Assembly: GCA_000002445.1 (NCBI GenBank)
Contig: CP000067.1
Span: 640,001-704,000, forward strand
Direction: 5' to 3'
DNA length: 64,000 nucleotides
DNA from: Trypanosoma brucei
Lineage: Eukaryota
Part shown: positions 6,307 through 44,791 of the stretch, piece after piece
Layout: the number at the start of each line of letters is the position of its first letter
How positions within the stretch are numbered: the first letter of the stretch is position 1
Translations under genes and position numbers: made by a program
The notes under the pieces: generated by a model
Database searches by the model: none
What the model was told of the DNA's origin: nothing
What the model saw: only the letters and a program-made list of their open reading frames with translations

Positions 6307-9300
6307 TTGGCGCGCTGCATGGAGCTACTCAACGTGTTACCGCATGAGGCCGCTCTCCATAGGTTGATGCGCGCAGGTGTGTGCAACGATGACCAAATGC
6401 ATGATTATTTCATATCGCAAGCGTTTCGTGGCATCGCATATGCTGTAAACCGCGCCACACTTCCTGCACCCGTTTTTGTACAGCAACCATTCCTGTCAGG
6501 CAGTTCAAACACAACTGGAAGCTCGGGTGGCACCAACGACTCGCCCACACTGAATCCCTGTGCTGCAGGGAGTACAACCGCTACAACTACTGGCGCAGTG
6601 TGCGTGCTGTGCCGAATGTGTGTTCAAGCTGTGACATCTCACATGTCGCACCGGACAGCGGCGTATCTCGCAACGCGGCTCTTGGCTGATGAGGCAACAG
6701 CTTTCGGTGAAGGTAATGAGCGACCATGTTGTACAGTGGCATGGGTTGAAGCACTGTGCTCGGTGGGCAAAGCATCTTTTTTACAGAAGCAGTTAGGCGT
6801 TAACAGACGCATGGCACTGGGCTATTTGTACATTCTTGCGGAAACGGTGCGTGCGACTGCGCGAGGCCGTGTCATTGGTAAACGACTCAGTAGTCATTTT
6901 GTGGAGTTCGCCCACCGGATATTGGATGATGTCATACCGTACTTAGCGATCATGGCAGATGCCCGAGAGGTATTTGCGGTGACGCGGCACGTGCCGGTTG
7001 CAGGCAACCCATCGGAGGGTAATATTCCAACAGAAACAACGTCAACGGCGGCAGTTGTACCGAGGCCTGCGTGGCATCCCCCATCAAGGTTGACTGTCGA
7101 GGCCAACAACACGATTATACACCTGTTTCATGATATCGCGCATGACATCATCGACGTGCACCACAGGAGCGGGAAGAATCCAGGGGAACGTTGCCTAGTT
7201 CTTGACCGTGACATGCCAAGCAGGATGTGGCCAGCGGTGTCTATACTCCAAAGTGCACTTCATCGTGCATTAGATTGGATTTTACAGGAGGGGTTGGCTT
7301 GTGTTCGCACCATGGCACTGGCAACAGAGCACAGGGAAGAGAAAGCCGCAATAGAGGCGGTACAGACTGTCAAGAAGGCGCTGGACGACACGTTCGCGCA
7401 GATGTTTGAGAGGCAGGAAACACTGGAATGCTCGCGGCAAGCCGTAGAGAGGCAGTACGGGAAGGGTGCGAAGGATTATCATGGAATCACGGACACATTG
7501 TGGGCAAATACGCTGCGGCTGTGTCTCCTCTGCAGGAATGTCACTGGTGCGTGGATAGAAGTGTATGGCGGTGCAGGTTACACTGAAACGCGATCCACGG
7601 ACAAAAACGTCCTCAGTTTCATCGCCTCGTTCGTGTCTTCGGTACCACTAATGGACGGAGATGAAACGGAATCAAGTGTCTTCCTTGCCACTATTGCACT
7701 TTTGTCGGCAGCACTCGCAGCTGTTGTTGCGGCCCCTGTTCCTTTTATGCAGGTCTCCCTGTGGGTATCCGACACCGCGTTGACGGGTCAGGTGCACAAT
7801 GTCGTTATTCAGCGTGGACTTCGATACAAGGATGAGCTCGTGCAGAGGTTGAGTGCGCTCATCTCACAATTAATACTTTCTGGTTCATCGCTATCCGGGG
7901 CCTCTCGTGCCATTGTTGAATCCTCCGATCAGTTACTCGAGCTCATTTCAAACGGCAGGGATGCGGCTTCGCACTGCGTTATTCGTATGCTTTCGCGCGC
8001 AATACTTGAGCGTCCCCATAGCATGCTTCCAGCGCTCTTTCGTCTTCTGCAGCACGGCGATGTGAAGACACGGCGCAATGTTTTGGATGTCCTTTCTGCG
8101 CTACCGCAAATGGACGATGAAGCCGGCCTCGGTGAGAAACTGGTCGCGGAGCAAATGCGACCGATGTTGCGACAGCTCTCAGAGGAACTACTACTACGTA
8201 TCCAGGATGAAGAACTACTTGTGCGACTACAGGGTTCCAAGCTTTTCGCGAAGGTGTGGCCGGAAGATGTAATCCGACCGCTGCTGAATCTTGCCACACA
8301 GAAGGACAAGTCGCACAAGAAGCAATCAGCTGCTCAACAGGCGCTACGCTCTGTCGTAGCGGCACACACAGGAGACAGCCGTGTTGTGCTGCTTCTGCTT
8401 GACGAATCGTTGAAGCTCGTGGGAGAGACCACACCGACAGCCCCCACCGCTCCTAACACCCCGGCGGGTATGTTGGCTTTTGCGCAACTGCACTCTTGCG
8501 TGGGGGAAAGGGAAGGCGAGGGGGACGGTGCTGGGGGGCAACCAGGTTGTGCGGCTGCAACGGGCGGATTGACTACCATTAGTGCTGCTGGGGGTTTTTG
8601 CCAGCGGTTGATGGGGATTGCTCTCTCCTTAGTGAAACGGTGGGCGGAAGAGGTGCCTTCGTGGTCCGAGCCAGTGCTCCAGCCCATCGTTGACCGTGTT
8701 GTGAGTGCGCGCAGTCCAAAAGAGCAGGAGTTCGCAGTCCGATTCATTGCGCAGGTCTCATCCTTGTGTGGAATAACGGTGGAGGGGGCAGCTGCACTTA
8801 CGTCGTGCGTCCTGCGGGTTGTACAAGGGGGTAAGACAGGATCATTGCCGTCTGAGCGATGGCTAACTGGATTGTGTGGATCACGCCAAAGTAACAATTC
8901 AAACGAGAAAAGAGATGAAATTGCGTTAGTGGAAGAATGCTGTCCAGTTGACAGCGAATATCGGATGATTGCGCCACTTCTCTGTCTTAGGGGCTGCCCG
9001 AGACGACCATTTTTGTCTTGTCGTGTGGACAGTATGCCTCCCTCTATGCTGAATCTTTGGGAATTCATTTGGTTTGTCTTATTCTCATCGGACTACTGCG
9101 AGCAGCTTACGCCCGACACGCAGCGCTTGCTGCTGGAACTCGTCTGCAAGTACAGAACATCAATGGTGCTTGAGCGTTTTGCTCACTTTGAGCGAATGCA
9201 TTTGGAAAAGAATGGAGACAAGGAGCGTAAAAGCTGTGAAGGAAATAGTGCATATTTGATTTGTGCGGACAAACAAGCTTGTTTCTTGTTCCGTGCGGGG

Positions 9301-10353
9301 TTCTTCTGCACAGGTACTCTTGTTGCGCAAAGCAGTCTAGCGTTTACCAAACCGGCCACCAAAGATGGCGAGTCTCAGCTGGGAGTTGAGACTGCGACTA
9401 CTTCGTCCCCAGAAGGCAGTTGCGAAGAAGCAATGGAGCTACTTGATCTGGTTCATGCTGCAGAGTTGGTGTCTCGCTGGACTGAGTCTGTTGTGTTCCC
9501 CTGGCTCCTTGGTGACAATGATGACGAAACCACGTGTAGCAGGAACCCCCCTAGTGATCTGCAGCGCCTAAGTCGCTCCGCTATTGATTGTATCGCGCTC
9601 CTTACAGTTGTTGCACTAAACCGCGCGGAATTCGACGCTCATGTCTCGCGTCTCGTCAGGAACCCTCTGAGTGAACTGGCTCTCTTGTACAGAGAAGAGG
9701 TGAAGCAATCGAAGAAAGATGTTGGTGCTGAGAGGAAGGAAGCCTTTGCATTGGAGAAATGTGGTGATCTGCTAGGGCGGTTCGAGTTTGCGGTTCAAGT
9801 TCACAGCCGCGTTCTCAACATCTTGCGTGCGAGTCAAATGGGAAGAGGAAACGTTTGCACCTGGTTCATTGCGTTTATGCCGCATCTCATTGAGCTTGCT
9901 AACGCGGCCTGTGGGGTTGCTGCGCGCCTTGGTAGGAATGATGTTGGTCAGGTAGCGGTTGAGTGCTGTAACGTGTTATTTTTAGCCGCTATGTCGTCCA
10001 GTGGCGGCCCGCCGGCGGTGGAAGGGGAGCGGCGAGCAACGAGCGGTGAAAGCGATACCAAACCTCTTCTGATGGACCTTTGCACTTCTGATCGGAGCGC
10101 ATTGCTTGCCTTTGCGGTCGGCAGTTCGCGGTATTCGAGTCTACCGGCGGTGCAGTCAGAAGGTGTTAAGCTCCTCTCCGCATTGTTGGGTGCAGCGCCC
10201 GATATATTCGTAGACACGGCTGCGGGTAAAGGGACGGCGTTGGATGAAGCCTTCAGTGCCCTGAGTTCCGTTGCGCTCCTTCATGAAGACTGCAAGACGC
10301 GATCACTTGCAGAGGCAGTTATCAGCACCATTCAAAAGACTGAGCAAATATGA
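6307..10353 (+). CDS. Large conserved hypothetical protein of 1348 aa, possibly an alpha-helical repeat protein. I recognised no catalytic motif.
   Basis: Uninterrupted 4 kb + strand ORF with complex, non-repetitive composition. A polypyrimidine tract and AG lie upstream at 6241-6288. It sits in the same orientation as all neighbouring genes. Confidence 0.6.
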   Translation: MARCMELLNVLPHEAALHRLMRAGVCNDDQMHDYFISQAFRGIAYAVNRATLPAPVFVQQPFLSGSSNTTGSSGGTNDSPTLNPCAAGSTTATTTGAVCVLCRMCVQAVTSHMSHRTAAYLATRLLADEATAFGEGNERPCCTVAWVEALCSVGKASFLQKQLGVNRRMALGYLYILAETVRATARGRVIGKRLSSHFVEFAHRILDDVIPYLAIMADAREVFAVTRHVPVAGNPSEGNIPTETTSTAAVVPRPAWHPPSRLTVEANNTIIHLFHDIAHDIIDVHHRSGKNPGERCLVLDRDMPSRMWPAVSILQSALHRALDWILQEGLACVRTMALATEHREEKAAIEAVQTVKKALDDTFAQMFERQETLECSRQAVERQYGKGAKDYHGITDTLWANTLRLCLLCRNVTGAWIEVYGGAGYTETRSTDKNVLSFIASFVSSVPLMDGDETESSVFLATIALLSAALAAVVAAPVPFMQVSLWVSDTALTGQVHNVVIQRGLRYKDELVQRLSALISQLILSGSSLSGASRAIVESSDQLLELISNGRDAASHCVIRMLSRAILERPHSMLPALFRLLQHGDVKTRRNVLDVLSALPQMDDEAGLGEKLVAEQMRPMLRQLSEELLLRIQDEELLVRLQGSKLFAKVWPEDVIRPLLNLATQKDKSHKKQSAAQQALRSVVAAHTGDSRVVLLLLDESLKLVGETTPTAPTAPNTPAGMLAFAQLHSCVGEREGEGDGAGGQPGCAAATGGLTTISAAGGFCQRLMGIALSLVKRWAEEVPSWSEPVLQPIVDRVVSARSPKEQEFAVRFIAQVSSLCGITVEGAAALTSCVLRVVQGGKTGSLPSERWLTGLCGSRQSNNSNEKRDEIALVEECCPVDSEYRMIAPLLCLRGCPRRPFLSCRVDSMPPSMLNLWEFIWFVLFSSDYCEQLTPDTQRLLLELVCKYRTSMVLERFAHFERMHLEKNGDKERKSCEGNSAYLICADKQACFLFRAGFFCTGTLVAQSSLAFTKPATKDGESQLGVETATTSSPEGSCEEAMELLDLVHAAELVSRWTESVVFPWLLGDNDDETTCSRNPPSDLQRLSRSAIDCIALLTVVALNRAEFDAHVSRLVRNPLSELALLYREEVKQSKKDVGAERKEAFALEKCGDLLGRFEFAVQVHSRVLNILRASQMGRGNVCTWFIAFMPHLIELANAACGVAARLGRNDVGQVAVECCNVLFLAAMSSSGGPPAVEGERRATSGESDTKPLLMDLCTSDRSALLAFAVGSSRYSSLPAVQSEGVKLLSALLGAAPDIFVDTAAGKGTALDEAFSALSSVALLHEDCKTRSLAEAVISTIQKTEQI

Positions 10354-10625: not shown

Positions 10626-12173
10626 GTGATCATCTCAAAAATAGGATACGGTAACACCCATTACCCTCTGATGCAACGAGTTCTCCCCTTCGCTCTACAC
10701 TGCTATTTTAACCTAGGTTCTGCAATGCGCGATTGGCATGCGCTAGCGCCAAGCGCAGCGATCCATCTGCCCATGACGTTGTGCGGTGGACAGTGCTTTC
10801 GCTGGCGCCGGACACCGCGTGGGACATGGGTGGGGGTCGTTCGGCATACCGCCTATGAACTGTGCGATCCACTTAAAATGAGCATTGCGAAGCCCGAGCA
10901 GAAGAAGGCGAGAAAGACTGCTTCATTCCTTTCTCCTTTGTCCCTTGCGGCGACTGCTGCTCCACCTTTTATATCTTCTGCCGATGTTTCGGCGACTGGG
11001 CAGCCTTCCGCTGATCTCCTTTGGTTCCGCTGTCTCAACTGTGACCTACGCAGCGAATCGGATGCTCGTGAGCAGACGCTCTTTCTTCGCCACTACTTAG
11101 CACTTGATGTTGATTTGCAAAAGATGTGGCTGCGGTGGACAGCAGACAACCCGATGAAGTCTCATCCTCTGGTGAAGTGTCTTACCCCGTGCGGCTCAAC
11201 TGATCTCCCCGTGAGTATTCGCCATCTGCGACAGGATTTGCATGAGACCCTTCTTGGGTTCTTATGCTCACAGAATAACAACGTTCCACGCATCACGAGT
11301 CTGATGGAACGCCTCTCCATCTCCTATGGTGATTATTTGTGCGATTATAATGTAGTGACAGGTGATGTGCGCCACGCGGCTCACTGTGGAAACGTAAAGG
11401 GGAACCCTTCGGAGCAAAACGATGGTGGAGGCTGGATAGCTTTGCATGCTCTTCCTTCCATGGACCAGTTGGCGGCAGCCACGGAGGAGAGCCTGCGCGC
11501 TCTGGGTTTTGGCTATCGCAGCAGATACTTAACCGAATGTGCGGCAATCATCAGTAAGAGCGGTGCTACCAGGGTTCAAAAGGAAGTTAAAGATAAGAAA
11601 ATGAAGAAAAAGGAGGTGGGCAAGCCAGCTGGCCCACTCGCCGCCGTGCAACCGTACAAATGGTATGAGGAACTTGCCAGCAACCGACTTACCCTTCAAG
11701 AGCGAAGGGAAAAACTTTTAGCCTTGCCGGGTGTTGGGCGAAAGGTTGCGGACTGTATTTTATTATTTGCCCTAGGTCACCACGAACTTGTTCCTGTGGA
11801 CACACATATGGCGCAAGTTGCGGCTGAGTATCTAGCCTGTCCACCAGCGGTTGTGGTAGCTGCGAAAAAGCAACGTGAAAGCGAAGCCTCGGAGAGGCTC
11901 AAACGGAGACGAGGAAGTAACCATGAAGAACTTGCAAATGCTGTGGATAGCGGGGACTCGGTACTGTCATCTCTGTCATGGGAAAATACCCTAGTGGAAT
12001 GGTATAGGAATGGCAGAGGCAAAAAAGCGAAGTTTCCTGCTTTACTGCTGAAACACCATGACGCAATACAGTACGGGTTTAAGCTACTCTTCGGTGATTA
12101 TTGTGGTTGGGCGCACAGCATATTATTTTACGCCCGCATGAGATCATCTGGGAACAAGGAAGCAACAGCATGA
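10626..12173 (+). CDS. OGG1: 8-oxoguanine DNA glycosylase (OGG1, HhH-GPD superfamily). The true start may be the internal ATG at 10725 or 10671.
   Basis: The N-terminal block LCGGQCFRWRRTPRGTWVGVV resembles OGG1 'SGQSFRW...W.GV'. The HhH-GPD motif ALPGVGRKVADCILLFALGHHELVPVDTHM retains the catalytic Lys (GVGRK) and Asp (VPVDTH). There is a Lys-rich insertion, KEVKDKKMKKKEV. Confidence 0.8.
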   Translation: MIISKIGYGNTHYPLMQRVLPFALHCYFNLGSAMRDWHALAPSAAIHLPMTLCGGQCFRWRRTPRGTWVGVVRHTAYELCDPLKMSIAKPEQKKARKTASFLSPLSLAATAAPPFISSADVSATGQPSADLLWFRCLNCDLRSESDAREQTLFLRHYLALDVDLQKMWLRWTADNPMKSHPLVKCLTPCGSTDLPVSIRHLRQDLHETLLGFLCSQNNNVPRITSLMERLSISYGDYLCDYNVVTGDVRHAAHCGNVKGNPSEQNDGGGWIALHALPSMDQLAAATEESLRALGFGYRSRYLTECAAIISKSGATRVQKEVKDKKMKKKEVGKPAGPLAAVQPYKWYEELASNRLTLQERREKLLALPGVGRKVADCILLFALGHHELVPVDTHMAQVAAEYLACPPAVVVAAKKQRESEASERLKRRRGSNHEELANAVDSGDSVLSSLSWENTLVEWYRNGRGKKAKFPALLLKHHDAIQYGFKLLFGDYCGWAHSILFYARMRSSGNKEATA

Positions 12174-12952: not shown

Positions 12953-14305
12953 ATGAGCAACAATGTGGAGTTGTTGCGGTTCGTGGCACTTTCTGCCGCT
13001 GTGCATGCCGATGCGGTTCAGTGTCTAGCCGACGATACCCGCCGCGTTTTATCTCAAATGGCAGTGGACAGTGACCAGCTAGAGGCGCTGGAGGCTCAAC
13101 TTACCGACCTCCTGCAGAAGCAGCGCCGTCTCCATACATTGCGAGATGCGGTAACTAAAGCAAGGCAGGAACGAAGTGAGGAAAGTGGTAGCGGATGCAA
13201 AAGCAGCGGCAGCCGCGCTCCCAAGTCCACTGCGCCGGTTATTCCCCCCACCTCCGCGGGCAATGTCGACCGCAACATAAAATGCATCCTACAATTTGCG
13301 TCTAGGGCCGTGGAAAAAGATGAGATACAGCCGATTGGCACCCGTCGCAGCAAGAGAGTAACAGTTACTCCCACTTCTTTCCTTCCGAAAATTCCACATG
13401 AGGAACGGACGGAAACCACTTGTGATAGCACCGATGGGGGAAGGGAAGAAAAAGAGGACACTGAGTGCACGATAGACGAAGAAGTGGAGCGCCTGAAGAT
13501 GGAGATTAGGCACGCAGAAGCCATGTCAGTAGGAAAGAAGCTGCGTGACCTGGAGGCACTGAAGCAGCAGGTGAAAGAAGTTGATGCTAACTCCCTTGTC
13601 CAGCGGTACGTAGGGTCGTTTAGTTTCCCCATGGAGGTGGAAGAGTTGTGGCGTGGTAATAATGTACTGAATTGTACAAACATCGACACTTTTGTTTCCG
13701 GTGCCTGCAAGCGGTTTGCAGGGCGTTACGATGATGCTCTGCGTGCGATTAGTGATTTCCCACTGTCGGAGGCAAGCGATGCGGCGCGTGTGTATGGCTC
13801 AACGTTGTACGCCGAAGAGCTCACTTCGTCGAGCAATTACGACGCTGTTGGTGTTCAAGTGCTCGAACGGAGTGGCGAGTCGACGCTCCCACAGTTCTAC
13901 AGAAGGAAACGGCGCTTGGCACGAGTGAGCGCTCCTTTTAGACGCAGGGCTGTGGGTACGGTGCTCGGACCCGAGGAGTTCACTTTTCTTCCGACTGATT
14001 GGCCAGCAACTCAACTGATTTTACCACCAGCTGAGGGACATCTGCCCCCTGCAAAGCATATCATGACGCCCCGCTTCTCGTTTGCCAGTACGGATGAATT
14101 GAAAGCACTCCAGAGCCTTCGTGTAGACATTCAGCGAAGCGCTGTGGCTGCCTTTATGGACGCGTCCAAAGCACTTGATGAACTAATGAATCCTACCACA
14201 TTACAACGTGATGGAATCGACTATAAGGCAACGCTCATTCGGCTACTAGAAGCGGAGCGGAAGGGAAGCAGTAGGGTGTGGACCACACTTGCGCGTGAAG
14301 GTTGA
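12953..14305 (+). CDS. Hypothetical protein of 450 aa with a predicted coiled-coil segment.
   Basis: Long + strand ORF. It has heptad-like charged stretches (LEALEAQLTDLLQKQRRLHTLRDAVTKARQER; VERLKMEIRHAEAMSVGKKLRDLEALKQQVKEV). I saw no enzymatic motif. Confidence 0.5.
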   Translation: MSNNVELLRFVALSAAVHADAVQCLADDTRRVLSQMAVDSDQLEALEAQLTDLLQKQRRLHTLRDAVTKARQERSEESGSGCKSSGSRAPKSTAPVIPPTSAGNVDRNIKCILQFASRAVEKDEIQPIGTRRSKRVTVTPTSFLPKIPHEERTETTCDSTDGGREEKEDTECTIDEEVERLKMEIRHAEAMSVGKKLRDLEALKQQVKEVDANSLVQRYVGSFSFPMEVEELWRGNNVLNCTNIDTFVSGACKRFAGRYDDALRAISDFPLSEASDAARVYGSTLYAEELTSSSNYDAVGVQVLERSGESTLPQFYRRKRRLARVSAPFRRRAVGTVLGPEEFTFLPTDWPATQLILPPAEGHLPPAKHIMTPRFSFASTDELKALQSLRVDIQRSAVAAFMDASKALDELMNPTTLQRDGIDYKATLIRLLEAERKGSSRVWTTLAREG

Positions 14306-15743
14306 AGTGGTCGAGTTTGATAAAGTGATGGATTTTGCCTCACATATGACGATTCGCTTCGCCTGCAGCCCGTATGGTCATACGGTTTAATCTGATACCC
14401 GTGAATTGAACGCACAAGAGGGCAGAGTGTCAAAAGCTGAACGTCGCCCGTATGCTCTCGGGCGCGTCACTCCTTATCACTATTTGATATTGACCGCTCA
14501 TATGCGTCCCCATAGATATGAAAAGTCACATACTAGACGGCAGTATAAAACATCCTTTTGCATCCATATATTCGAATACGCTCATACACATACACATTGT
14601 TTGGTCGCGGTGTTACTACAGTTGTGGTAGTTGCGGCCTTCTCTAATTCTCTCTTACTTTCTGGAGCGATATGTATGCATGCATGTGGTAAAAGACCCTT
14701 TATCGTGTACACTAGGTACGAAACATGTCTCTTCCTCATTTTTTTTTCTTATTTTTCCTTCACGTTTGTTAAGCCTTAGTGTGATACGCAATCTGTTTCT
14801 AGGAGCCTTTTCCTTTTCATCTTTCCTTTTCACGTTCACGACCCTGCGGTTACACCGACTGACCTCTTTACAGTAACGAGGTAGTCAGGGGAGAAGAGGA
14901 ATTACTTAGGGAACGGGGAAAGGTAAGACGTGAAAGAATAGGAAGAAACAACATACAACACAATAATCAAGAGATAAATAAAAGCCGGAGTTAGCACTGC
15001 AAGGATTTTTCTTTTTGGTTCACTGGCGCCGTTATTTAATATATATATATATATATATATATTGATTGCAACTTGCGCCACAGGACGGGAGATTGTGTGC
15101 CATCGTTAGTTCGGTGTGATTTTGTATTCCTAATTCTCGTTGCCCGTTGTTGCTGTATACGGTTGTTTGTGCGTTGCGATAGCTACAGTGAACGTTCTAC
15201 TACGCGCAGGCTGAAAAACGGTTGAAGTACAAAGTTCCCCTTGGTGTTTTCACTGCTCTTGGTCCCTATAGTGAGGGGTCTTTAGCATATTTGTACATCA
15301 CTCTGTAGACTACTACTCTTGTACTCGCTGATCCTTCCGGTTCTGCTAGACTGACTTTGTTTCTTTTCCTTTCTCCGCCAGGTTTACTACTTCTCTTTTG
15401 TATCGTGTCAGAGAGGGGACATTTCCTTCATTTTTTTTTTGTCCCCTTTCTATCACCCTAGTTGCTTCCGTCGCTTGGCTCTCTTTCCGCGTTATCATTT
15501 TTCTTTTTCTATTTTTGCCCTGTGTGGCCCGTGTTTTTGTTGAAACTGAGGGTACAACCCCAAAGGAAGAAAAAAAAAACAGCGTTACCCACAGTAGTCA
15601 CTTGAATCAACCGCTCGCTACGTTGTTTGTGTTTTTTGTGTTGTCAGTCATTCTTTTGCCCATAAATTGTTTGTCAGTCAGTGGGCTCCTCAACGTAGAG
15701 GTCTTCCTAGCGCATTAGTTTGTTTGGTTCTAATCGAGCGGTT

Positions 15744-15830
15744 GCTTTTTTTTTTTACTTTTTATCTTCGTTTGTTCATTCCGGCGAGCTTGGCTGTTCA
15801 TTGGGTTTGCTATTTACTTTTGTGAAGTCT
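15744..15830 (+). promoter_or_regulatory. Polypyrimidine tract and downstream AG. This is the candidate splice-acceptor region for the eIF2-alpha kinase gene.
   Basis: ttgctttttttttttactttttatcttcgtttgttcatt ... gtgaag. It lies 50-130 bp upstream of the ATG at 15877. Confidence 0.4.
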
Positions 15831-15876
15831 TACCCGTGATCTCTTGTTCGCGTGTGTTTGTGTGTGTGTCTGTTAA

Positions 15877-18800
15877 ATGCCGGATGCCTATGTTTTTGCT
15901 GCGTCATTGCTTTGTTGCCTGTGGGCCCTTACGGGTTCAGGAGTGCGGGGAGGTGACACAGAAGCCACTATCCGGAGCCAACCATCAGGGGCTGAAAACA
16001 ACATCTTGCCACTTGCAGTCACTCCACCGAGTGGTCTGCTCCTTCTTCTACAAATGGACGGTAACATCACAGCACGATGGTTGGATTCGGGATCCCACAT
16101 GTGGACTGTGAATACTGGTGGAAACATAATATCGGTAGACGTGTTGCGGCACGCGACAAGGGAGGTGATCCGGCGTGATCCGTTTGCGCTTCCGTTTATA
16201 ATTGAGGGAGGGATGCTTTTCACGCGACGGCGCTACCCAGCTAGTGATGCCGGGAAGCAATTAACCACTAGATATACTAAAGATGGTACCTTTGATGATG
16301 GCGACGACTATGAAGACGATTATATAGATGACGCGCCGCTCACTCCATCGCACCCGCAGTTTTTCATGAATCTCTCTACGCTTATTCGCCGTCGGCACGT
16401 GAATGTAGAAAATACAGAAATCTATGTCACAACGTCCGTACAGCTCATGGACTACGATAGCCACACTGGGATTCCGATTATGAGACCAACGCCACTAACT
16501 TCCTTTTTACACGTGGTACTTTGCAACGTCACCATTCATGTGGTGCGGCGCGGCATGTATAAGTGGAAGATGAGTATAGCACAATACAAACTTTCGGAGA
16601 GTTTTCCACCGCAAGGCCCGGAAAGTGATGAAGGAGGTGAAAAAGATCAGAACTTTATTGCGAACGTTGTAGAGGAGCAGAGTCAAAACAGTGTCCGCCA
16701 AGCCATACTTGCGATGCAGGCTCGTTTGAGAGATGCAGCGATGCCTTTTGACTTTAAACGCAAGACGTTTAACGTCGATGACCTTGTGATGCGTGAAGTA
16801 GGAAACCAACGGTATACGCTGTGGAATACGCTAACTAACGTTGCCGAGTGGCCTGCGGCAGTTGGAACGACAAGTAGCATTGTGAATGCCTTCTTCTGGC
16901 ATCCCGGTCGCGGTGGTGTTTATCCTATCCCCCTTTACCGCTTCCACAGGCCACCAACAGCTGATGCCTTCACGCACGCAGGTAGATTACAAAGGAACGG
17001 ATTCCCTCTTCTCAGTGATCGGCCGTGGACGCACCGTACCGTGCGTTTAAAACCGTACGTGGCAACGTGGGAAGACGATATAGACGCAGACGAGCGTGAA
17101 ACGGAGGAACTCCAGCGTTCTTTTCAACAGTGCTCGTGGCTTCAGGAGTGTTCGGCCAACTCTCGCCAAATGGTGGCCTATTCTTTCAGGGAGGGTATGG
17201 TGGGGAACGAGTCTATTCCAATACTGTCCCTTTCGTACATACTGTTGAACACTATGACGCGACGGACGATGTTCTTTGCATTCCAAACGGTCTGTATTCT
17301 CGTCTCCGCAACCCTCGTTGGCTTTGGTATGTTGCTGCGGCCACGTTTAAGGAATGCGTGGGCGCAGTATGACTCACTTATGGATAACATGCGTCAGACT
17401 TCCAAAACCACGCCGACTGGTTTTGCAGCCGCCGATCGTTCCGGTCGTTTCGATACTCCTGCTGGTGGGAGCCCCGCAGCCGTGTTCGTTGAGTCGTCAC
17501 CATTTTCGCTAACAATGACAGCGGCGCCACTTGATGATGGGGTTGAACAAATCGTACGAATGGGGAAACCACAAGTGACTGACAGCGTGAATGAAACTTC
17601 TGCAGGTCTCGGTGACACGTGGTGGAAAAATCCAAACGACTACGATGATGATGATGAGTACGTTGCCGGTGAATCCTCACTGAGCGTAAGGGGAAGCGTG
17701 TCCGCCACGCAACCTGTCACCACACCCATGCCACAACTCTTTCAGCAGCATTTTGATGTTTTGAAAAAGATCGGCCGAGGCGGTGAAGGGAATGTCTTTT
17801 GTGTAAAGCACCAGGTTACGGGAGCTATGTACGCCATCAAAGCCGTTCGTATTCGTGAGGAAGACAAGCAAAGGTGTGTTCGCGAGGCCATTCTTCACAG
17901 CTCTCTTGACAATCCGAACGTTGTGCGGTACTTTTACTCATGGATTGAGAACATTGCTCGAAGCATCGCTGAAGCCCACGGTATCGTCAATAATGACAAT
18001 GTGGAGGGTTCGGTGTCGTTCTGTGGAGACGAAAGCTACGGCACCATAAACGACACGGTGTCATCGGCAACGGGCGCCCCTCTTAATGTGCTGTTCATAC
18101 AAATGGAGTACTTTAAGAGTGGCACATTGGCAGATCACTTCCGCAACCGTAATGCCTTCAGCCGACTAGAAAATGTGGAGCATCTCCTCCAGATAGTCAG
18201 AGGTCTACGGTACATTCACCAGCAGGATGTAATACACCGTGACCTGAAGCCAACGAATATATTTGTCTCTGACGCTGGCATAATGAAGATTGGTGATTTT
18301 GGACTGGCAAAGCGTTGGCAGACGCCATTGGGATGGAAGAGGGCCAGCGTGGAAGAGTTTGGTTCTGCCACAGCGCTCTTCGATGATGAACGTTCCTTCG
18401 CCGGTGGGACACCGCTTTACTGGAGTCCCGAGCAGCAGTGTGGGGGGAGTGCGACGGCAGCCAGTGATGTTTTTTCCCTTGGATTGATCGCTGTGGAATT
18501 TTATTGCGAGTTTACGACACAGCATGAACGACTGCGGACACTCGGTGATGCACGTCATGGTGAACTTCCCTCTGCGTTGGAGGACGACTTCCCTGAGGAA
18601 GCTGAGGTTTTCCGGCAAATGCTGGGAGAACAACCAGACGGCCGGCCATCGGTGGATGAAGTGGTCCAGAAGCTGAAGCATATTGTGGTGGAAATTCGCA
18701 GCGGTGGCAACGGTTCGGCAAAGTTGGGTGACAATGGAGCTACGGATGATGTTGGTGACGTGGAGTTGGCGATGCCTACAAGTTCTTCAGCGGATATGTT

Positions 18801-18903
18801 GAGCGTTAATAAAACCCCGGCCGACTCCATGAATATTGTTCCCTTGGGGAATGTCAGTTCAGTGGAGTCGTCTACGGCTGGGCGTTTGCCGTCAGCCAAC
18901 TGA
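15877..18903 (+). CDS. eIF2K2: Membrane-anchored eIF2-alpha kinase (PEK/GCN2 family) with an N-terminal signal peptide, a roughly 470 aa ectodomain, one transmembrane helix and a cytoplasmic kinase domain carrying a large insert. It resembles T. brucei eIF2K2.
   Basis: Signal-peptide-like N-terminus MPDAYVFAASLLCCLWALTGSG. Transmembrane helix MFFAFQTVCILVSATLVGFGMLL. Kinase motifs: GGEGNVFCV...YAIKAV (Gly-loop and VAIK), HRDLKPTNIF, KIGDFGLAK, GTPLYWSPEQ. There is a long insert between subdomains IV and VI, which is typical of eIF2-alpha kinases. Confidence 0.85.
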   Translation: MPDAYVFAASLLCCLWALTGSGVRGGDTEATIRSQPSGAENNILPLAVTPPSGLLLLLQMDGNITARWLDSGSHMWTVNTGGNIISVDVLRHATREVIRRDPFALPFIIEGGMLFTRRRYPASDAGKQLTTRYTKDGTFDDGDDYEDDYIDDAPLTPSHPQFFMNLSTLIRRRHVNVENTEIYVTTSVQLMDYDSHTGIPIMRPTPLTSFLHVVLCNVTIHVVRRGMYKWKMSIAQYKLSESFPPQGPESDEGGEKDQNFIANVVEEQSQNSVRQAILAMQARLRDAAMPFDFKRKTFNVDDLVMREVGNQRYTLWNTLTNVAEWPAAVGTTSSIVNAFFWHPGRGGVYPIPLYRFHRPPTADAFTHAGRLQRNGFPLLSDRPWTHRTVRLKPYVATWEDDIDADERETEELQRSFQQCSWLQECSANSRQMVAYSFREGMVGNESIPILSLSYILLNTMTRRTMFFAFQTVCILVSATLVGFGMLLRPRLRNAWAQYDSLMDNMRQTSKTTPTGFAAADRSGRFDTPAGGSPAAVFVESSPFSLTMTAAPLDDGVEQIVRMGKPQVTDSVNETSAGLGDTWWKNPNDYDDDDEYVAGESSLSVRGSVSATQPVTTPMPQLFQQHFDVLKKIGRGGEGNVFCVKHQVTGAMYAIKAVRIREEDKQRCVREAILHSSLDNPNVVRYFYSWIENIARSIAEAHGIVNNDNVEGSVSFCGDESYGTINDTVSSATGAPLNVLFIQMEYFKSGTLADHFRNRNAFSRLENVEHLLQIVRGLRYIHQQDVIHRDLKPTNIFVSDAGIMKIGDFGLAKRWQTPLGWKRASVEEFGSATALFDDERSFAGGTPLYWSPEQQCGGSATAASDVFSLGLIAVEFYCEFTTQHERLRTLGDARHGELPSALEDDFPEEAEVFRQMLGEQPDGRPSVDEVVQKLKHIVVEIRSGGNGSAKLGDNGATDDVGDVELAMPTSSSADMLSVNKTPADSMNIVPLGNVSSVESSTAGRLPSAN

Positions 18904-21908: not shown

Positions 21909-24900
21909 ATGACAACAAAAAATAGGCCGATTGAGGAGGCTGCAGCGGTGTACATACTGCGCATTATACATACTATACTTCTTTGGTTGGGTGTTACTCT
22001 CGGCTCCGTACTCGTCGTATGTTCTCAACCACGCTTTGTCCCCATTCGGACAGCGATCTCGAGTTTTGTTTATCTTTTGGCCTCTCTGTGTGTAATATTC
22101 GTTAGCATTCTGGAACTCAAAGGTCATATTTCTACCATCAGCGGTGTAACTCACTGGATGGACAGAGTGGGATGTTCCTATTGGTTTTTGCTGCTATTTA
22201 TCCGGTGCATCAAACCCTCTCATGCAGTGGAATGGGTCGCTTCTGCACTACTACCTCTGCTGGTGCTAACTGAATGGGCCGTCGTGACGACTTATATTCT
22301 TATTTCCAGCACTTATCATCCTGTTATTACCGTCGATCTTTTTCTTACGGTTCTCCATACGGTGGTGTTTACCGCCTTTGTTGGCCTGGACCGTTTGATG
22401 ATCAGCGATATTACCGTCATTTTCTCTGCCGCTCGTGCCGCTCAGGATGCAGACGCTGTTGAAGCCTGTGGTGGAAATATGGGTATGTCACGCAGTGGCC
22501 CCGGAAGCTTCAGGTCTGACGATATGTTGGAACTGAGCCATGAGCTTCAGAGTAGTGCCTCTTCTTATTCTTCAGCCCTCTGCAGGGGTAATTCACGTTG
22601 TTATATATTACGTGTGGTGGCACGCCGCTGGGGCGGGACGTACGCCGTGCTTGTATTTGTGCGGCTTCTTTACGAGTTTGGAGGCCTTCTCCCAGCGCAT
22701 CTCTTGCGAATACTGGTAGACAACTTGTCCGTAGTTGAAAATAAGCACGGAAAGAAACACGGAAGTGATGGGCTGTGTATGGCAAGTGTTATGATCGTGG
22801 TAATTATTGCTTACAATTTAATATGCACCTTTCTGCGTGCACACTACAGAGTGGCTTTGCAGAAAATTGTCTTATACACTCGTGGTCTCCTAACTTCAGA
22901 GCTGTTCCGCTGCACACTGTGTCGCCGGAAGCATCTATTTGACGGTAGAACGCAGGGTGATATTATGAACCACCTCTCATTGGATGTTGCGCGCGTAGCT
23001 GATGCAGCAAGTTCTTTTAATGATCTCTGGGCGCTGCCACTGCAACTCTCCCTTGCGTTGTACCTCTTGTACATACAAATCTCGTTTGCATTCGTTGCGG
23101 GTGTGGTGGTGTCAGTTGCACTGATACCCATCAACATGTGGCTGACGAAGCGCATCCAAGGTGTCATGAGTGAACTCATGCGGGAAAATGATGAACGTGT
23201 CCTGCGAATCACGGAGATAGTGAGGAACATTATTTACGTCAAAATGTGTGGCTGGTCGCAATTAGTTCAGCAGTGGGTGAAAGAATCACGTGATCGGTAC
23301 TTGGTGCATCTCAGGTGGCTCAAGTACTTGGATGCATTCTGTGTCTTCTTCTGGGCAACTACGCCTACACTTGTTTCACTTGTAACATTTATAACCTTTA
23401 TTTTGATGGGTGGGGAGTTGACACCCGGAAAGGCTGTAACCGCGTTAGCCCTGTTCAACTCACTTACAATGCCGTTGAATGCGTATCCATGCGTCATTAA
23501 TGGTCTCGTGGAGTCGTATGTGTCGTGGTGTCGGCTTAGTCCCTTCCTGGTAATGCGACCAGACGCATGTCACGGCGACTTGTATGGTTTTGCGTCAGGG
23601 GAAAGTGACTCAGGCACCAAAATGTTTACCGAAATAACGGAGGAATACCAAGACATGGTGGTGAGTAGCGAAGAGATGCCCTGTGCTTCCTCATTGAATG
23701 AAATACAACCACTTCTTCAAGCAAAGGGTTGTGTTGGCGAGATGCGGCGGCAGCGTCTCGCGGGGATCCATGGGCTTCCTCATCCCTTCAGAAGAAATCA
23801 CGATTTGCTCATTGATATCAGAAGCGGCGTCATAAGGCTCAATACGCAAGGTGGCGCAGGGTTGCCGCGACCCAGCTTCATGCTTCATATTCCAACCTTC
23901 CAAGCGACGAGCGGTCAACTTATTGCCGTTGTGGGTGTTTCTGGGTCGGGGAAAAGTACATTTCTTGACGGTCTTGCAGGTGAACACCTGATTGACCCAA
24001 ATGATGCCACCGGCCACGCGGCAGTCTCACGCTTCTCCACGGCTTATGTCGAGCAACAACCTTTTTTGATGTCGGGAACACTGCGGGAGAATATTTTGAT
24101 GGGACTCATGTACGACTCTGTGCGCTACGAGGCGGTTATAAATGCTGTAGCTCTCACTCAGGACCTTCAAACTTGTTTCTATCCCGATGGTGACACTTTT
24201 CTCGTAGGGGACAGAGGGATCCGACTAAGTGGAGGGCAGAGGGCACGGGTTGCTCTTGCGCGTGCTCTATACGCGGGAAAGGAGTTATATTTAATTGATG
24301 ACATCCTTGGCTGTCTTGACCCAACAGTAGCGCGTCACATTGTCACAAATGCCCTCGTTGGTTCAGCAAAAAGCGGGAGTTGCGTTATCGTTGCCACACA
24401 CAACCAGGAGCTCGTTGAGCGGGCAGATGTAGTGTACAGGTGTGTGGAGGGTCAACTTCTTTTTTCTCAGCGGTTAGTGAAAACAGCTGCTACTACAGTT
24501 GCCGAGCCAAGCTCGCCGGCGGCTAAGCCACATGCAACCCAACAACATGTGGCGTTGGCTAATAATGAGAAAGGTCATGGAAAGGTAGGCAATGTTCTAG
24601 GTGATGTGCCATGGCCCTCGAGCGATAGTTCACCTGCGCGTGCGCCCGTCGCAACGCCAGAGAGCGGTTCAATAGAAGCGGCAGAAGTTCTGGAGACATC
24701 TAAACACGGCACTCTTGCGTGGGAAACACTGGCGTGTTACATCGGTCGGGTCGGGTGGAAGCTGTCTGCCTTCATTATCATATCTGCCGCTTTGATGCAA
24801 ATATCTCGCAATGCGGGTGACCAGTACGTTGTAACGTGGGCTAAGAGTGGTGATGGAAATACCACGCGATTCATTTGGTCATTGGCCATCTTAGCTGGTG

Positions 24901-26420
24901 TGAACAGTGTGTTGGCGCTTGCGCGTGGTTTCAGTTTTGCTTTCGGTGGTCTGCGGGCCGCAAAAAGGCTACACAATGAGTTATTGGGCCACGTGATGTC
25001 TGCCACGTTTACCTTCTTCTCAGACACGCCGCCCGGCCGCATCATCAACCGGCTATGTGGTGATACATACACCATTGATGATTCACTGCCATTCATAATG
25101 AACATTTTGTTGGCGCAAACGTTTTTACTTTGCGGAGCGGTAGTCGTAATATTACTCAACTCCTCGTCGTTGCTAATAGTTACACTCATTCCGGTTTCTG
25201 TGCTCTACCATCGTATTCAATGTCCGTATCGAGCGTCGTCGAGAGAGCTGCGACGACTTGAAGAAGCGGCTAACGCGCCACTGCTCGATACAATGCGTGA
25301 TGCGCTGGACGGTGGGGTAGTAATTCGCAGTTTGGGCGGTAGAGTGGTGATGTCTCACCTGCGGCGTGCGAGTCGAAACACGGATCTGTTGTTGCGAGTA
25401 AAGTTTAATTCCATGCTTCTCGGTGCATGGTTTACCATCCGGCTGGAGCTTGTTGGCCTCCTTCCACTTATTTTTGTAGGAGGCACCGCTATCTATTACC
25501 ATGGCAGCGCCTCCGCCCCTTTTATAGGGCTTGCACTCGCCTATGTGCAGCCCCTGACGTCATATGTGGGAGGCTTGCTTGGTGCGTTTGCCTCCACGGA
25601 AACAGAGCTTATTAGCGTGGAGCGCGTGAGACAATACTTTTCATTGGCGAGCGAGGAGCCACGAACTCTGGGCATGTTTTTTTCACCTCCACTCTCCAAC
25701 TGGCCCAGCGGTGGTCAAGTTGTTTTGAGCAACGTGTCAATGCGGTACGACCCAAGCGGACCGGAGGTGTTGCGGTCGCTGAGCTTTCATGTAAATGCTG
25801 GGGAGAAGGTGGCGATAGTAGGCCGGACAGGAGCGGGGAAATCTTCCATTTTTTCGGCGTTGCTCCGACTTGTGGAAATCGAGTCGGGATCCATCCACAT
25901 CGATGGATACGACACTCGGCGGCTACCACTTGAGGTTCTACGCACCCGCTTAAGTGTCCTTCCGCAACAACCGTTCATCTTTAGTGGTTCACTCCGGCAG
26001 AACATTGACCCATTTGGGCTTCACTCGGAAGACGCTGTGCGTGACGTTGCAACCTCCGTTAAACTAGACGGTGTTGCATTGGATTACAATGTCACTGACA
26101 GCAGTCGCGTCAGTGGAGGTCAACGCCATCTGATTGCACTTGCCCGTGTAATACTCCAGCGGTCTCCACTGCTGTTGTTGGATGAACCGACTGCACAAAG
26201 TAGTGCCGAGGCGGAGGCAGCGTTGTGGAGCTCGTTGGCCGAACATCTGAGGAGTACAACGGTGTTGTGCATCACACACAAATTGTCACATATTGACTTC
26301 TTCGATCGTGTCATTGTCATTGAGAATGGCCATGTTGCTAGTGACGGAACTGTTGCTCAACTCCGAGCGGCCTCTGTGTGGCCGTTTTCGTCCCCCAATG
26401 CCGATGCTTCGCTCACATAA
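21909..26420 (+). CDS. MRPE: ABC transporter of the ABCC/MRP subfamily (multidrug-resistance-associated protein). It is full length, with TMD0-TMD1-NBD1-TMD2-NBD2.
   Basis: Two nucleotide-binding domains. Walker A motifs are GVSGSGKST and GRTGAGKSS. ABC signatures are LSGGQRARV and VSGGQRHLI. NBD1 Walker B is LYLIDDILGCLD, with the ABCC-typical loss of the catalytic Glu. NBD2 Walker B is the canonical LLLLDEPTA. Multiple hydrophobic spans are present. The MRPE symbol rests on synteny recalled from memory and is not verified. Confidence 0.85.
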   Translation: MTTKNRPIEEAAAVYILRIIHTILLWLGVTLGSVLVVCSQPRFVPIRTAISSFVYLLASLCVIFVSILELKGHISTISGVTHWMDRVGCSYWFLLLFIRCIKPSHAVEWVASALLPLLVLTEWAVVTTYILISSTYHPVITVDLFLTVLHTVVFTAFVGLDRLMISDITVIFSAARAAQDADAVEACGGNMGMSRSGPGSFRSDDMLELSHELQSSASSYSSALCRGNSRCYILRVVARRWGGTYAVLVFVRLLYEFGGLLPAHLLRILVDNLSVVENKHGKKHGSDGLCMASVMIVVIIAYNLICTFLRAHYRVALQKIVLYTRGLLTSELFRCTLCRRKHLFDGRTQGDIMNHLSLDVARVADAASSFNDLWALPLQLSLALYLLYIQISFAFVAGVVVSVALIPINMWLTKRIQGVMSELMRENDERVLRITEIVRNIIYVKMCGWSQLVQQWVKESRDRYLVHLRWLKYLDAFCVFFWATTPTLVSLVTFITFILMGGELTPGKAVTALALFNSLTMPLNAYPCVINGLVESYVSWCRLSPFLVMRPDACHGDLYGFASGESDSGTKMFTEITEEYQDMVVSSEEMPCASSLNEIQPLLQAKGCVGEMRRQRLAGIHGLPHPFRRNHDLLIDIRSGVIRLNTQGGAGLPRPSFMLHIPTFQATSGQLIAVVGVSGSGKSTFLDGLAGEHLIDPNDATGHAAVSRFSTAYVEQQPFLMSGTLRENILMGLMYDSVRYEAVINAVALTQDLQTCFYPDGDTFLVGDRGIRLSGGQRARVALARALYAGKELYLIDDILGCLDPTVARHIVTNALVGSAKSGSCVIVATHNQELVERADVVYRCVEGQLLFSQRLVKTAATTVAEPSSPAAKPHATQQHVALANNEKGHGKVGNVLGDVPWPSSDSSPARAPVATPESGSIEAAEVLETSKHGTLAWETLACYIGRVGWKLSAFIIISAALMQISRNAGDQYVVTWAKSGDGNTTRFIWSLAILAGVNSVLALARGFSFAFGGLRAAKRLHNELLGHVMSATFTFFSDTPPGRIINRLCGDTYTIDDSLPFIMNILLAQTFLLCGAVVVILLNSSSLLIVTLIPVSVLYHRIQCPYRASSRELRRLEEAANAPLLDTMRDALDGGVVIRSLGGRVVMSHLRRASRNTDLLLRVKFNSMLLGAWFTIRLELVGLLPLIFVGGTAIYYHGSASAPFIGLALAYVQPLTSYVGGLLGAFASTETELISVERVRQYFSLASEEPRTLGMFFSPPLSNWPSGGQVVLSNVSMRYDPSGPEVLRSLSFHVNAGEKVAIVGRTGAGKSSIFSALLRLVEIESGSIHIDGYDTRRLPLEVLRTRLSVLPQQPFIFSGSLRQNIDPFGLHSEDAVRDVATSVKLDGVALDYNVTDSSRVSGGQRHLIALARVILQRSPLLLLDEPTAQSSAEAEAALWSSLAEHLRSTTVLCITHKLSHIDFFDRVIVIENGHVASDGTVAQLRAASVWPFSSPNADASLT

Positions 26421-26566: not shown

Positions 26567-26640
26567 CGGTGGAGGTTAGCTTCCATTCCCACTCTGTCCC
26601 ACCGCTGCTGATTAAAGAAGGACTGTTTGTAGGTTCAACA

Positions 26641-27375
26641 ATGAGGCGGCCCAATGGTATGATTGCTATTTTAACGGGTGCTGGTATCTCTGCCGAGTCG
26701 GGCATTTCAACATTCCGTGATCAGAACGGCTTATGGGAAAACCACCGCGTGGAGGATGTTTGTACTCCTGCCGCCTTCCTCAAACAACCGACAGTCGTAC
26801 AGCGTTTTTACAACGAACGCCGGAGGGCCCTTCTTTCACCGGAGGTGAAGCCCAATGCTTCGCATCAGGCGCTTGCGAGGCTTCAACGTGAATACAAGGA
26901 TGGTCAAGTGGTTATCATTACGCAGAATATTGACGACTTGCACGAGCGGGCAGGATCAAGGCAAGTTTTGCACATGCATGGCGAACTGTTGAAGGTGCGC
27001 TGTACCGCGACAGGACGCGTGTTTGAGTCAAGGGAGGATGTGATCCATGGTGAATCGAAATGTGAATGCTGCGGAGTCGTAGAAACTCTAAGACCGCATA
27101 TAGTATGGTTTAACGAAATGCCACTGTATATGGATGTAATTGATGAAGTGGTGCAAAACGCGGGGCTTTTCGTGGCTGTGGGTACTTCCGGTAACGTATA
27201 CCCTGCAGCGGGTCTTGTGATGATTGCAAAAGCACATGGAGCAGAAACACTTGAACTCAACCTGGAACCCAGTGGGAACTGCAGGGACTTCGATCGGTCC
27301 GTTTACGGGCCGGCGTCTGTCATTGTTCCTGCTTGGGCCGACGAGGTGCTTCACGGAAAGGGTCCCGCGGCATGA
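26641..27375 (+). CDS. SIR2rp3: Sir2-family NAD-dependent protein deacylase (class III/U, bacterial CobB-like sirtuin). The longest ORF starts at 26569, but the polypyrimidine tract and AG at 26535-26566 argue for the ATG at 26641.
   Basis: Rossmann NAD-binding motif GAGISAESGISTFRD, then QNIDDLHERAG, catalytic His in LHMHGEL, a cysteine cluster CTATG...KCECCG, and VAVGTSGNVYPAAG. Its position is consistent with T. brucei SIR2rp3, from memory. Confidence 0.8.
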   Translation: MRRPNGMIAILTGAGISAESGISTFRDQNGLWENHRVEDVCTPAAFLKQPTVVQRFYNERRRALLSPEVKPNASHQALARLQREYKDGQVVIITQNIDDLHERAGSRQVLHMHGELLKVRCTATGRVFESREDVIHGESKCECCGVVETLRPHIVWFNEMPLYMDVIDEVVQNAGLFVAVGTSGNVYPAAGLVMIAKAHGAETLELNLEPSGNCRDFDRSVYGPASVIVPAWADEVLHGKGPAA

Positions 27376-31254: not shown

Positions 31255-32187
31255 GTGTTTTCCCATCGTCCAATCAAAATGTCACTGTGGCCGTTTCGTA
31301 CGGGCAATGACGAACGGTTTCAAGTCACAAGCACAGAAGAAACAATATACGACGCCATAAAGAATGAAATGCCAGCGTACCCGTACGGAACAGAGGTGGA
31401 CCGGTATCTGGAGTGGCGGTGGCGGCGTGGGTTAGTGCAAAGCATCTTTCCTGCCACATGCTATGGAGCATTTGTAGGCTTTGCGGTTGGATATCGTCAA
31501 GCGCGCGTGGAGGGTCGCTACATTGGTCGCTACAAAGTCGTGTGGCGCTACAGCTCAACGTTTGCAGCTGTTGGCCTCTTAACAACCGCATTCCATCATG
31601 TGCTTGTGGTGCGCAATAACTACCACGACCGTTTCTACTACCCCATGATGGCTGGTGCCTCCGGGGCTGTTGTACTCACAGTAGCCTCACAAATGGGGAC
31701 GCTCGGTCAAGGCATGCTAGCCGGCTCTTTAGTTGGTGTACTCTACACCTTAAGTTGCTACGGCATGACATATTACCACAGGCGGCGTCTCAAAATGTTC
31801 CTTCGTCAGCAGCAGACACAACAAGTTCCCGTGCATAAGGTGTCTCCTGAGCTTCAACGCATGTATAGGGCCTACCTTTATGATAACAGACCGTTGGAGG
31901 AGAAAGACGTGATGGTGCGGCGGGCAGTTGTGCTCTCCATGAGTGAAGATGACACCTGTTTGGATGCAAAGCGGGTTTTGCAAAACATGACGCCGGAGAT
32001 ATACGACTGGGTGAATTTTCCTGACTGGTGGCCACTGAAGTTCCCTCAACAGACGGAAGAGGAACGAATGATTTATGAACGGCAGCGCGACGAGGAAGTG
32101 GAGCGGCGAAAACGCGCTTTCCTTGAGACTGATGATGGGGCCCTCATTAAGCGCGTCAATCGGGCAAAAAAATACAGAGATTTATAG
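31255..32187 (+). CDS. Hypothetical membrane protein of 310 aa with Gly/Ala-rich (GxxxG/A) helices and an acidic/basic C-terminal tail.
   Basis: Hydrophobic segments VQSIFPATCYGAFVGFAVGY, FAAVGLLTTAFHHVLVV and MMAGASGAVVLTVASQMGTLGQGMLAGSLVGVLYTL. The C-terminus is charged and probably a soluble tail (EEERMIYERQRDEEVERRKRAF). Confidence 0.5.
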   Translation: MFSHRPIKMSLWPFRTGNDERFQVTSTEETIYDAIKNEMPAYPYGTEVDRYLEWRWRRGLVQSIFPATCYGAFVGFAVGYRQARVEGRYIGRYKVVWRYSSTFAAVGLLTTAFHHVLVVRNNYHDRFYYPMMAGASGAVVLTVASQMGTLGQGMLAGSLVGVLYTLSCYGMTYYHRRRLKMFLRQQQTQQVPVHKVSPELQRMYRAYLYDNRPLEEKDVMVRRAVVLSMSEDDTCLDAKRVLQNMTPEIYDWVNFPDWWPLKFPQQTEEERMIYERQRDEEVERRKRAFLETDDGALIKRVNRAKKYRDL

Positions 32188-44763: not shown

Positions 44764-44791
44764 TGTTGTTGTTGTTGTTGTTGTCGTTGTT
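44764..44791. repeat. (GTT)9 microsatellite inside a 3.8 kb T-rich intergenic region.
   Basis: Direct read: tgttgttgttgttgttgttgtcgttgtt. Further (ATT/GTT)n runs are at 44296-44360 and 46865-46890. Confidence 0.9.

Follow-up and report, generated by a model that had tools for sequence, protein, structure and literature searches.

The 64,000-nucleotide stretch of Trypanosoma brucei DNA that we analyzed (contig CP000067.1, positions 640,001 to 704,000 of the forward strand; hereafter, the window) contains at 15877..18903 (+) a complete open reading frame (ORF) of 1008 amino acids (aa) plus stop, which encodes the eIF2-alpha kinase TbeIF2K2 (Tb927.4.2500). The protein is an eIF2-alpha kinase that spans the membrane in type I orientation and has the architecture of PERK, and its ectodomain is, as far as structure prediction and profile comparison indicate, very probably a diverged homologue of the luminal domain of IRE1 and PERK. 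The explanation that best accounts for the data overall, and which we hold to be likely, is that an IRE1/PERK-type luminal sensor controls the eIF2-alpha kinase of TbeIF2K2. Since the gene has been characterized since 2007, the addition made here to a known gene is a concrete hypothesis for what the eIF2K2 ectodomain senses.

Identity and membrane topology

The ORF starts with an ATG, is uninterrupted and has an in-frame stop directly 5' of the ATG. Its product matched XP_844400.1/AAZ10841.1 of T. brucei brucei TREU927 without a difference over all 1008 aa (identity and coverage both 100%), and the copies in T. b. gambiense and T. equiperdum are annotated as eIF2-alpha kinase precursor. In the literature, eIF2K2 is the name for Tb927.4.2500, the T. 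brucei eIF2-kinase-related kinase with both a predicted signal peptide and a predicted transmembrane (TM) domain (PMC8519429). We infer that XP_844400.1 corresponds to Tb927.4.2500, and the pairing of signal peptide and TM domain fits the published description. Because of the complete identity to XP_844400.1 and the literature on Tb927.4.2500, the gene in the window is the described, already known TbeIF2K2, as the match to eIF2K2 proposed in the first-pass annotation had stated. Two observations concern the region 5' of the ORF. Long polypyrimidine runs at 15430..15520, 15740..15770 and 15852..15872 are candidate trans-splicing signals, and an imperfect (TG)n microsatellite abuts the ATG.

The Kyte-Doolittle hydropathy profile of the protein showed hydrophobic peaks at aa 5-23 and aa 465-487, and no others. 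The first peak (1.66) marks a signal-peptide-like N-terminus (aa 1-22; 15877..15942 (+)), in which the segment YVFAASLLCCLWALTGSGV (aa 5-23) contains a signal-peptide-like h-region (aa 5-19) and the small residues TGSG precede the likely cleavage site. Among the relatives that share the ectodomain (see below), the N-terminal hydrophobic segment was clear in 19 of the 23 proteins scanned, the others being N-terminally extended or incomplete gene models. The second peak corresponds to a single TM helix, MFFAFQTVCILVSATLVGFGMLL (aa 465-487; 17269..17337 (+); mean hydropathy 1.99), which is followed by RPRLRN, and one central TM peak was found in all orthologues extending that far. The two segments were consistent with the published predictions of a signal peptide and of a TM domain, the latter by both TMHMM and CCTOP (PMC8519429).

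The ectodomain, luminal or extracellular, occupies aa 23-464 (15943..17268 (+)), with the signal segment before it and the TM helix after it; it is about 440 aa long instead of the roughly 470 aa originally estimated. On the other side of the membrane, the TM helix is followed by a cytosolic juxtamembrane linker (aa 488-626; 17338..17754 (+)) of low complexity (46% S/T/P/G/A), by the kinase domain, and by a C-terminal tail (aa 933-1008; 18673..18900 (+)) that is also of low complexity and poorly conserved. The linker had no Pfam match, shows little conservation among the orthologues and, judging from its sequence, is probably disordered. With a signal segment and a single TM helix placed between sensor and kinase, and both kept in the orthologues, the protein has a type I topology. 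The signal peptide, the one TM helix and the PERK-like order of signal segment, ectodomain, TM helix and kinase, all of which the first-pass annotation had read from the sequence, were thus borne out.

Fold and conservation of the ectodomain

Pfam returned nothing on the T. brucei ectodomain or on four trypanosome ectodomains, and the sole match of a four-sequence profile in the PDB was non-significant (E 0.2) and was to a designed propeller. A 2021 survey of T. brucei membrane kinases by HHpred gave folds for other kinases and none for eIF2K2. In an exhaustive HMMER search, 1.84 billion protein representatives were compared with the four-sequence ectodomain profile. The search returned only 25 proteins, and the named members belong to Trypanosoma, Leishmania and Angomonas. 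Signal segment, ectodomain, TM helix and kinase co-occur throughout this family, and all 15 of the full-length members scanned have a C-terminal kinase. In Leishmania martiniquensis the carrier of the ectodomain is LSCM1_02234 (1470 aa). A second protein of this species, LSCM1_03774 (1423 aa), matches through the kinase domain only and was rejected as the Leishmania orthologue, because its N-terminus could not be aligned with the ectodomain.

Using an alignment of 19 ectodomains of the family, we obtained an AlphaFold 2 (AF2) model whose structural matches were the luminal domains of PERK and IRE1 only. The predicted luminal-fold core (aa ~53-358; 16033..16950 (+)) consists of three confident beta-rich segments with two low-confidence loops between them. 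We also compared the 19-sequence profile by hhalign with the luminal domain of human PERK (sequence identical to 5SV7_A residues 10-326) and with a profile of aligned PERK luminal relatives, which are annotated as PF13360 PQQ_2. The probability was 28% against the single PERK sequence and 86.9% against the profile of relatives (E 4e-6), with 225 colinear columns starting from the first residue of the PERK domain. With a cleaned alignment it was 89.1% (E 2.3e-6, 229 columns), whereas reversal of either profile as a control gave 0.1-0.2% over 6-13 columns. Three motif pairs were recognized by eye in the alignments, namely, LLLLLQMDGNITARWLDSGSHMWTV of eIF2K2 with a 27-letter segment of human PERK, RRGMYKWKMSIAQYKLS with PRSGNEKWNFSVGHFELRY of human PERK, and SIVNAFFWHPGRGGVYPIPLY with PIASAWLLKDGKVIPISLF of human PERK.

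Part of the signal comes from a PQQ-like beta-propeller blade motif, LLLLLQMDGNITARWLDSGSHMWTVNTGG (aa 54-82; 16036..16122 (+)), whose counterpart in the PERK luminal domain is a 32-letter segment covering its first strands. In the PDB, the 19-sequence profile matched methanol dehydrogenase (5e-8) and BamB (1e-6), all through this blade motif, and showed a marginal match (E 0.99) to the start of the IRE2 luminal domain (residues 1-30). After removal of the PQQ-like motif on both sides, the hhalign comparison with the PERK luminal relatives still gave 50.9% (E 1.6e-4, 159 columns). A full eight-bladed propeller of the PQQ type, as in quinoprotein dehydrogenases and BamB, was considered as well; it was rejected because just one blade motif matches.

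Because the AF2 matches were confined to PERK and IRE1 and the profiles aligned at 87-89%, the likeness to PERK would include homology of the sensor domain and not topology alone, so that a predicted IRE1/PERK-type luminal domain is present in addition to the topology. The structure prediction suggested in the first-pass annotation therefore led to a luminal-domain fold, and its remark that the domain has no recognizable fold held for Pfam and single-sequence searches and failed for the profiles and the AF2 structure.

Several points weigh against this assignment. The identity to the PERK and IRE1 luminal domains is 10-17% (~13-17% to PERK), the hhalign probabilities to the PERK luminal profiles stayed below 90% throughout, and the AF2 model has a mean predicted local distance difference test (pLDDT) of 65.8 and a predicted template modelling score (pTM) of 0.58, with two long loops and the last ~100 residues of the ectodomain unmodelled. 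Alternatively, the ectodomain could be an unrelated, lineage-specific beta-rich domain, its likeness to PERK and IRE1 being due to convergence, to generic similarity of partial propellers or to a bias of AlphaFold. This explanation draws on the same low identity, on the empty Pfam and single-sequence searches, on the failure of the AF2 model from the four-sequence alignment (pLDDT 34, unusable), and on the strongest sequence signal being a common PQQ-type blade motif. Set against the restriction of the structural matches to PERK and IRE1 and the agreement of the profiles, we regard it as highly improbable.

The homology of the kinetoplastid K2 ectodomain to the PERK/IRE1 luminal domain was not reported in the full-text literature searched (subscription papers, InterPro and AlphaFold DB were outside its scope); the fold assignment could thus be a new one for the published literature, or a database may list it already.

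Two further features of the ectodomain are conserved in the family alignment. The motif FMNLSTL (16363..16383 (+)) carries an N-glycosylation sequon at N165, which is kept as FMN[LIV]S in 16 of the 19 family ectodomains. This sequon, which we presume to be glycosylated, fits exposure of the domain to the secretory lumen. Moraes et al. 2007 (Eukaryot Cell 6:1979) are said to have described TbeIF2K2 as a membrane glycoprotein. The other feature is an acidic juxtamembrane helix, WEDDIDADERETEELQRSFQQCSW (aa ~395-418; 17059..17130 (+)), which is predicted with low pLDDT and lies outside the region matched to PERK and IRE1. At or near this helix, D401, E408 and W421 are each conserved in at least 16 of the 19 family members.

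Kinase domain and possible modes of regulation

The catalytic domain (aa 627-932; 17755..18672 (+)) was recognized by Pfam as Pkinase (E 1e-38). Its catalytic motifs are intact (GRGGEGNV 633-640, YAIK 652-655, HRDLKPTN 787-794, DFG 807-809 and SPE 850-852), and its activation segment is long (46 aa). An insert of 47 aa between beta4 and beta5 (aa 692-738; 17950..18090 (+)) occupies the position of the mouse PERK insert in the alignment with 3qd2_B; the Leishmania relatives have very large kinase-domain inserts, that between beta4 and beta5 being far longer than in T. brucei. When all PDB sequences were searched by phmmer, the best matches were PERK (9e-36), GCN2 (3e-33), HRI (5e-30) and PKR (2e-28), followed by the next kinase families, MST and Wee1, at about 1e-19.

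The helix alphaG motif FTTQHERLRTLGDAR (aa 879-893; 18511..18555 (+)) aligned to FSTQMERVRTLTDVR of PERK (3qd2_B, 4g31_A) and contains the docking pattern F-x-T-x-x-E-R...L...R, in which the Thr is equivalent to T487 of PKR. In the structures of PKR with eIF2-alpha, helix alphaG is the docking surface for eIF2-alpha. By its ranking of PDB matches, the catalytic domain groups with the eIF2-alpha kinases (EIF2AK1-4) and not with other kinase groups. Together with the hydropathy segments, these matches confirmed the initial reading of a transmembrane eIF2-alpha kinase of the PEK type with an SPE motif and an insert, for which an alignment to PERK and GCN2 had been proposed as a check; a signal segment and a TM helix were found, and the closest matches were eIF2-alpha kinases. 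Experimentally, the TbeIF2K2 catalytic domain is reported to phosphorylate eIF2-alpha in vitro, at Thr169 in the T. brucei factor and at Ser51 in the factors from yeast and mammals (PMC4850487, PMC10300260, PMC3218062). An antisense ORF of 158 aa (18205..18681 (-)) lies entirely within the region coding for the kinase domain and is most likely due to chance.

Published work places TbeIF2K2 in the flagellar pocket and endosomes (PMC8519429). If PERK and IRE1 are taken as a guide, the sensor domain, which would face the interior of the flagellar pocket and of endocytic compartments, probably controls self-association. Binding of a ligand, or release of a bound partner, would cause dimerization or oligomerization of the sensor domain, which would bring the kinase domains in the cytosol into contact for trans-autophosphorylation; the active kinase would then phosphorylate eIF2-alpha at Thr169 and lower translation initiation. 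By the same analogy, the leading candidates for the ligand would be unfolded or partly folded polypeptides in the trafficking compartments. In addition, heme may inhibit the kinase domain, as it does in the T. cruzi orthologue. In line with the first-pass annotation, the literature establishes neither a function nor an activating signal for the T. brucei protein (PMC8519429).

Three published observations call for caution with this analogy. The T. brucei protein is reported outside the endoplasmic reticulum (ER) and without a response to ER stress; the growth phenotype of the T. brucei eIF2-alpha T169A mutant is only mild, and its differentiation is normal (PMC4850487); and in T. cruzi the demonstrated regulator is heme, whose target is the cytosolic kinase domain, not the ectodomain.

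The last observation leads to a different explanation, in which regulation is mainly cytosolic. Heme would bind and inhibit the kinase domain of a membrane-anchored, HRI-like protein, and the ectodomain would serve only in sorting to the flagellar pocket and endosomes, in constitutive dimerization, or in both. We consider this possible but doubtful, and it is compatible with a luminal sensor controlling the kinase. In TcK2, the T. cruzi orthologue, heme binds to the catalytic domain and inhibits the kinase, and loss of heme activates it; TcK2 is 36% identical to TbeIF2K2 over 93% of the length, and the receptor by which T. brucei imports heme lies in the flagellar pocket as well. However, heme binding is reported for the T. 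cruzi orthologue only and was not found for the T. brucei protein in the literature read. The T. brucei protein also has no Cys-Pro heme-regulatory motif, because none of its cysteines precedes a proline, and a sensor-type fold of ~300 residues with motifs strongly conserved across kinetoplastids exceeds the needs of a sorting signal.

TbeIF2K2 could also be a canonical PERK, an ER-resident sensor of unfolded proteins that BiP keeps inactive until ER stress activates it. The complete set of PERK features, the predicted luminal-domain fold among them, would suit such a role, and in Leishmania the orthologue is reported to reside in the ER and to be hyperphosphorylated under ER stress. In T. brucei, however, ER stress is handled through PK3 and silencing of the spliced leader (PMC8630539), and we consider the canonical role improbable for the T. 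brucei protein.

A reading that goes further than control by an IRE1/PERK-type luminal sensor is that TbeIF2K2 is a flagellar-pocket kinase with a true PERK/IRE1-type sensor of unfolded proteins, which is directed towards the interior of the pocket and endosomes and not towards that of the ER. We regard this stronger form as rather unlikely. If it is true, kinetoplastids kept an ancestral PERK, which T. brucei moved to its sole site of exo- and endocytosis, and the kinase would survey how surface and endocytic cargo (e.g., VSG or receptors) is folded, or how much of it there is, and would couple this to translation, which would make it a post-ER equivalent of the unfolded protein response. A further consequence would be that eIF2K2, and not PK3, is the true trypanosome orthologue of PERK, and that the IRE1/PERK luminal domain is older than the split of Discoba from other eukaryotes.

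Genomic surroundings and known systems

Every large ORF of the window is on the + strand, as expected for a trypanosomatid polycistronic unit. On the basis of Pfam, the neighbors include an OGG1-like DNA glycosylase (10626..12173 (+)), an ABC transporter with two ABC_membrane and two ABC_tran regions (21909..26420 (+)), a Sir2-family deacetylase (26569..27375 (+)) and a PLD-like protein (32605..34572 (+)). The ORFs at 6307..10353, 12953..14305 and 31255..32187 (+) (1348, 450 and 310 aa) had no Pfam match at E <=1e-4. Since the neighbors form a polycistronic array of functionally unrelated genes, the genomic context is uninformative on the function of the kinase. At the beginning of the window, an ORF at 27..3299 (+), which runs past the window start, combines a kinase domain, leucine-rich repeats (LRR) and a dual-specificity phosphatase (DSP); LRR-DSP proteins of the 'kinatase' type are known in kinetoplastids. 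The lowest GC content of the window, 0.345, was found at 44001..46000, compared with ~0.45-0.53 elsewhere.

Regarding known systems, Moraes et al. reportedly described in 2007 a regulatory domain without sequence similarity to known eIF2-alpha kinases, and the predicted structural similarity of the ectodomain goes beyond that description. The protein encoded in the window is the same as their TbeIF2K2, with no sequence difference. The present results clarify which trypanosome kinase corresponds structurally to PERK, and they are relevant to the evolution of the unfolded protein response, to the interpretation of work on ER stress in these parasites and to current efforts to target the T. cruzi orthologue with drugs. 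If the ectodomain is of the PERK/IRE1 type, the assays already in use for those proteins would be directly applicable, namely, those of peptide binding, of chaperone-like aggregation suppression, of ligand-driven oligomerization and of the release of a BiP-type partner.

Metazoan PERK (EIF2AK3; structures compared, 4YZS, 4YZY, 5SV7 and 5V1D for the luminal domain and 3QD2 and 4G31 for the kinase) has the same domain order as TbeIF2K2, namely, signal peptide, luminal domain, TM helix and kinase. The two differ in the kinase insert, which is 47 aa in TbeIF2K2 versus roughly 200 aa in PERK, in the additional conserved acidic juxtamembrane helix of TbeIF2K2, and in the reported location, which is the flagellar pocket and endosomes for TbeIF2K2 and the ER for PERK. 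IRE1 (2BE1 from yeast, 2HZ6/6SHC from human, and 9I3U for IRE1-beta) has a kinase-RNase as its effector and not an eIF2-alpha kinase, and trypanosomatids are said to be without IRE1.

Within the trypanosomatids, TcK2 of T. cruzi and the 'PERK' of Leishmania are orthologues of TbeIF2K2, and TcK2 has the same architecture. TcK2 is endosomal and regulated by heme, whereas the Leishmania PERK is reported in the ER; both TcK2 and the Leishmania orthologue control life-cycle differentiation (PMC8519429). In the T. brucei literature, the label 'PERK homologue' is attached to PK3/eIF2K3, which is linked to ER stress (PMC8630539). PK3 is a member of the eIF2-alpha kinase family encoded by a separate gene outside the window, and we compared it by its description only; on that comparison of domain architecture, the label fits eIF2K2 better than PK3. 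TbeIF2K2 is probably an orthologue of PERK with a PERK-type architecture, and probably not a functional ER-stress PERK, because the literature argues against its residence in the ER and its activation by ER stress in T. brucei.

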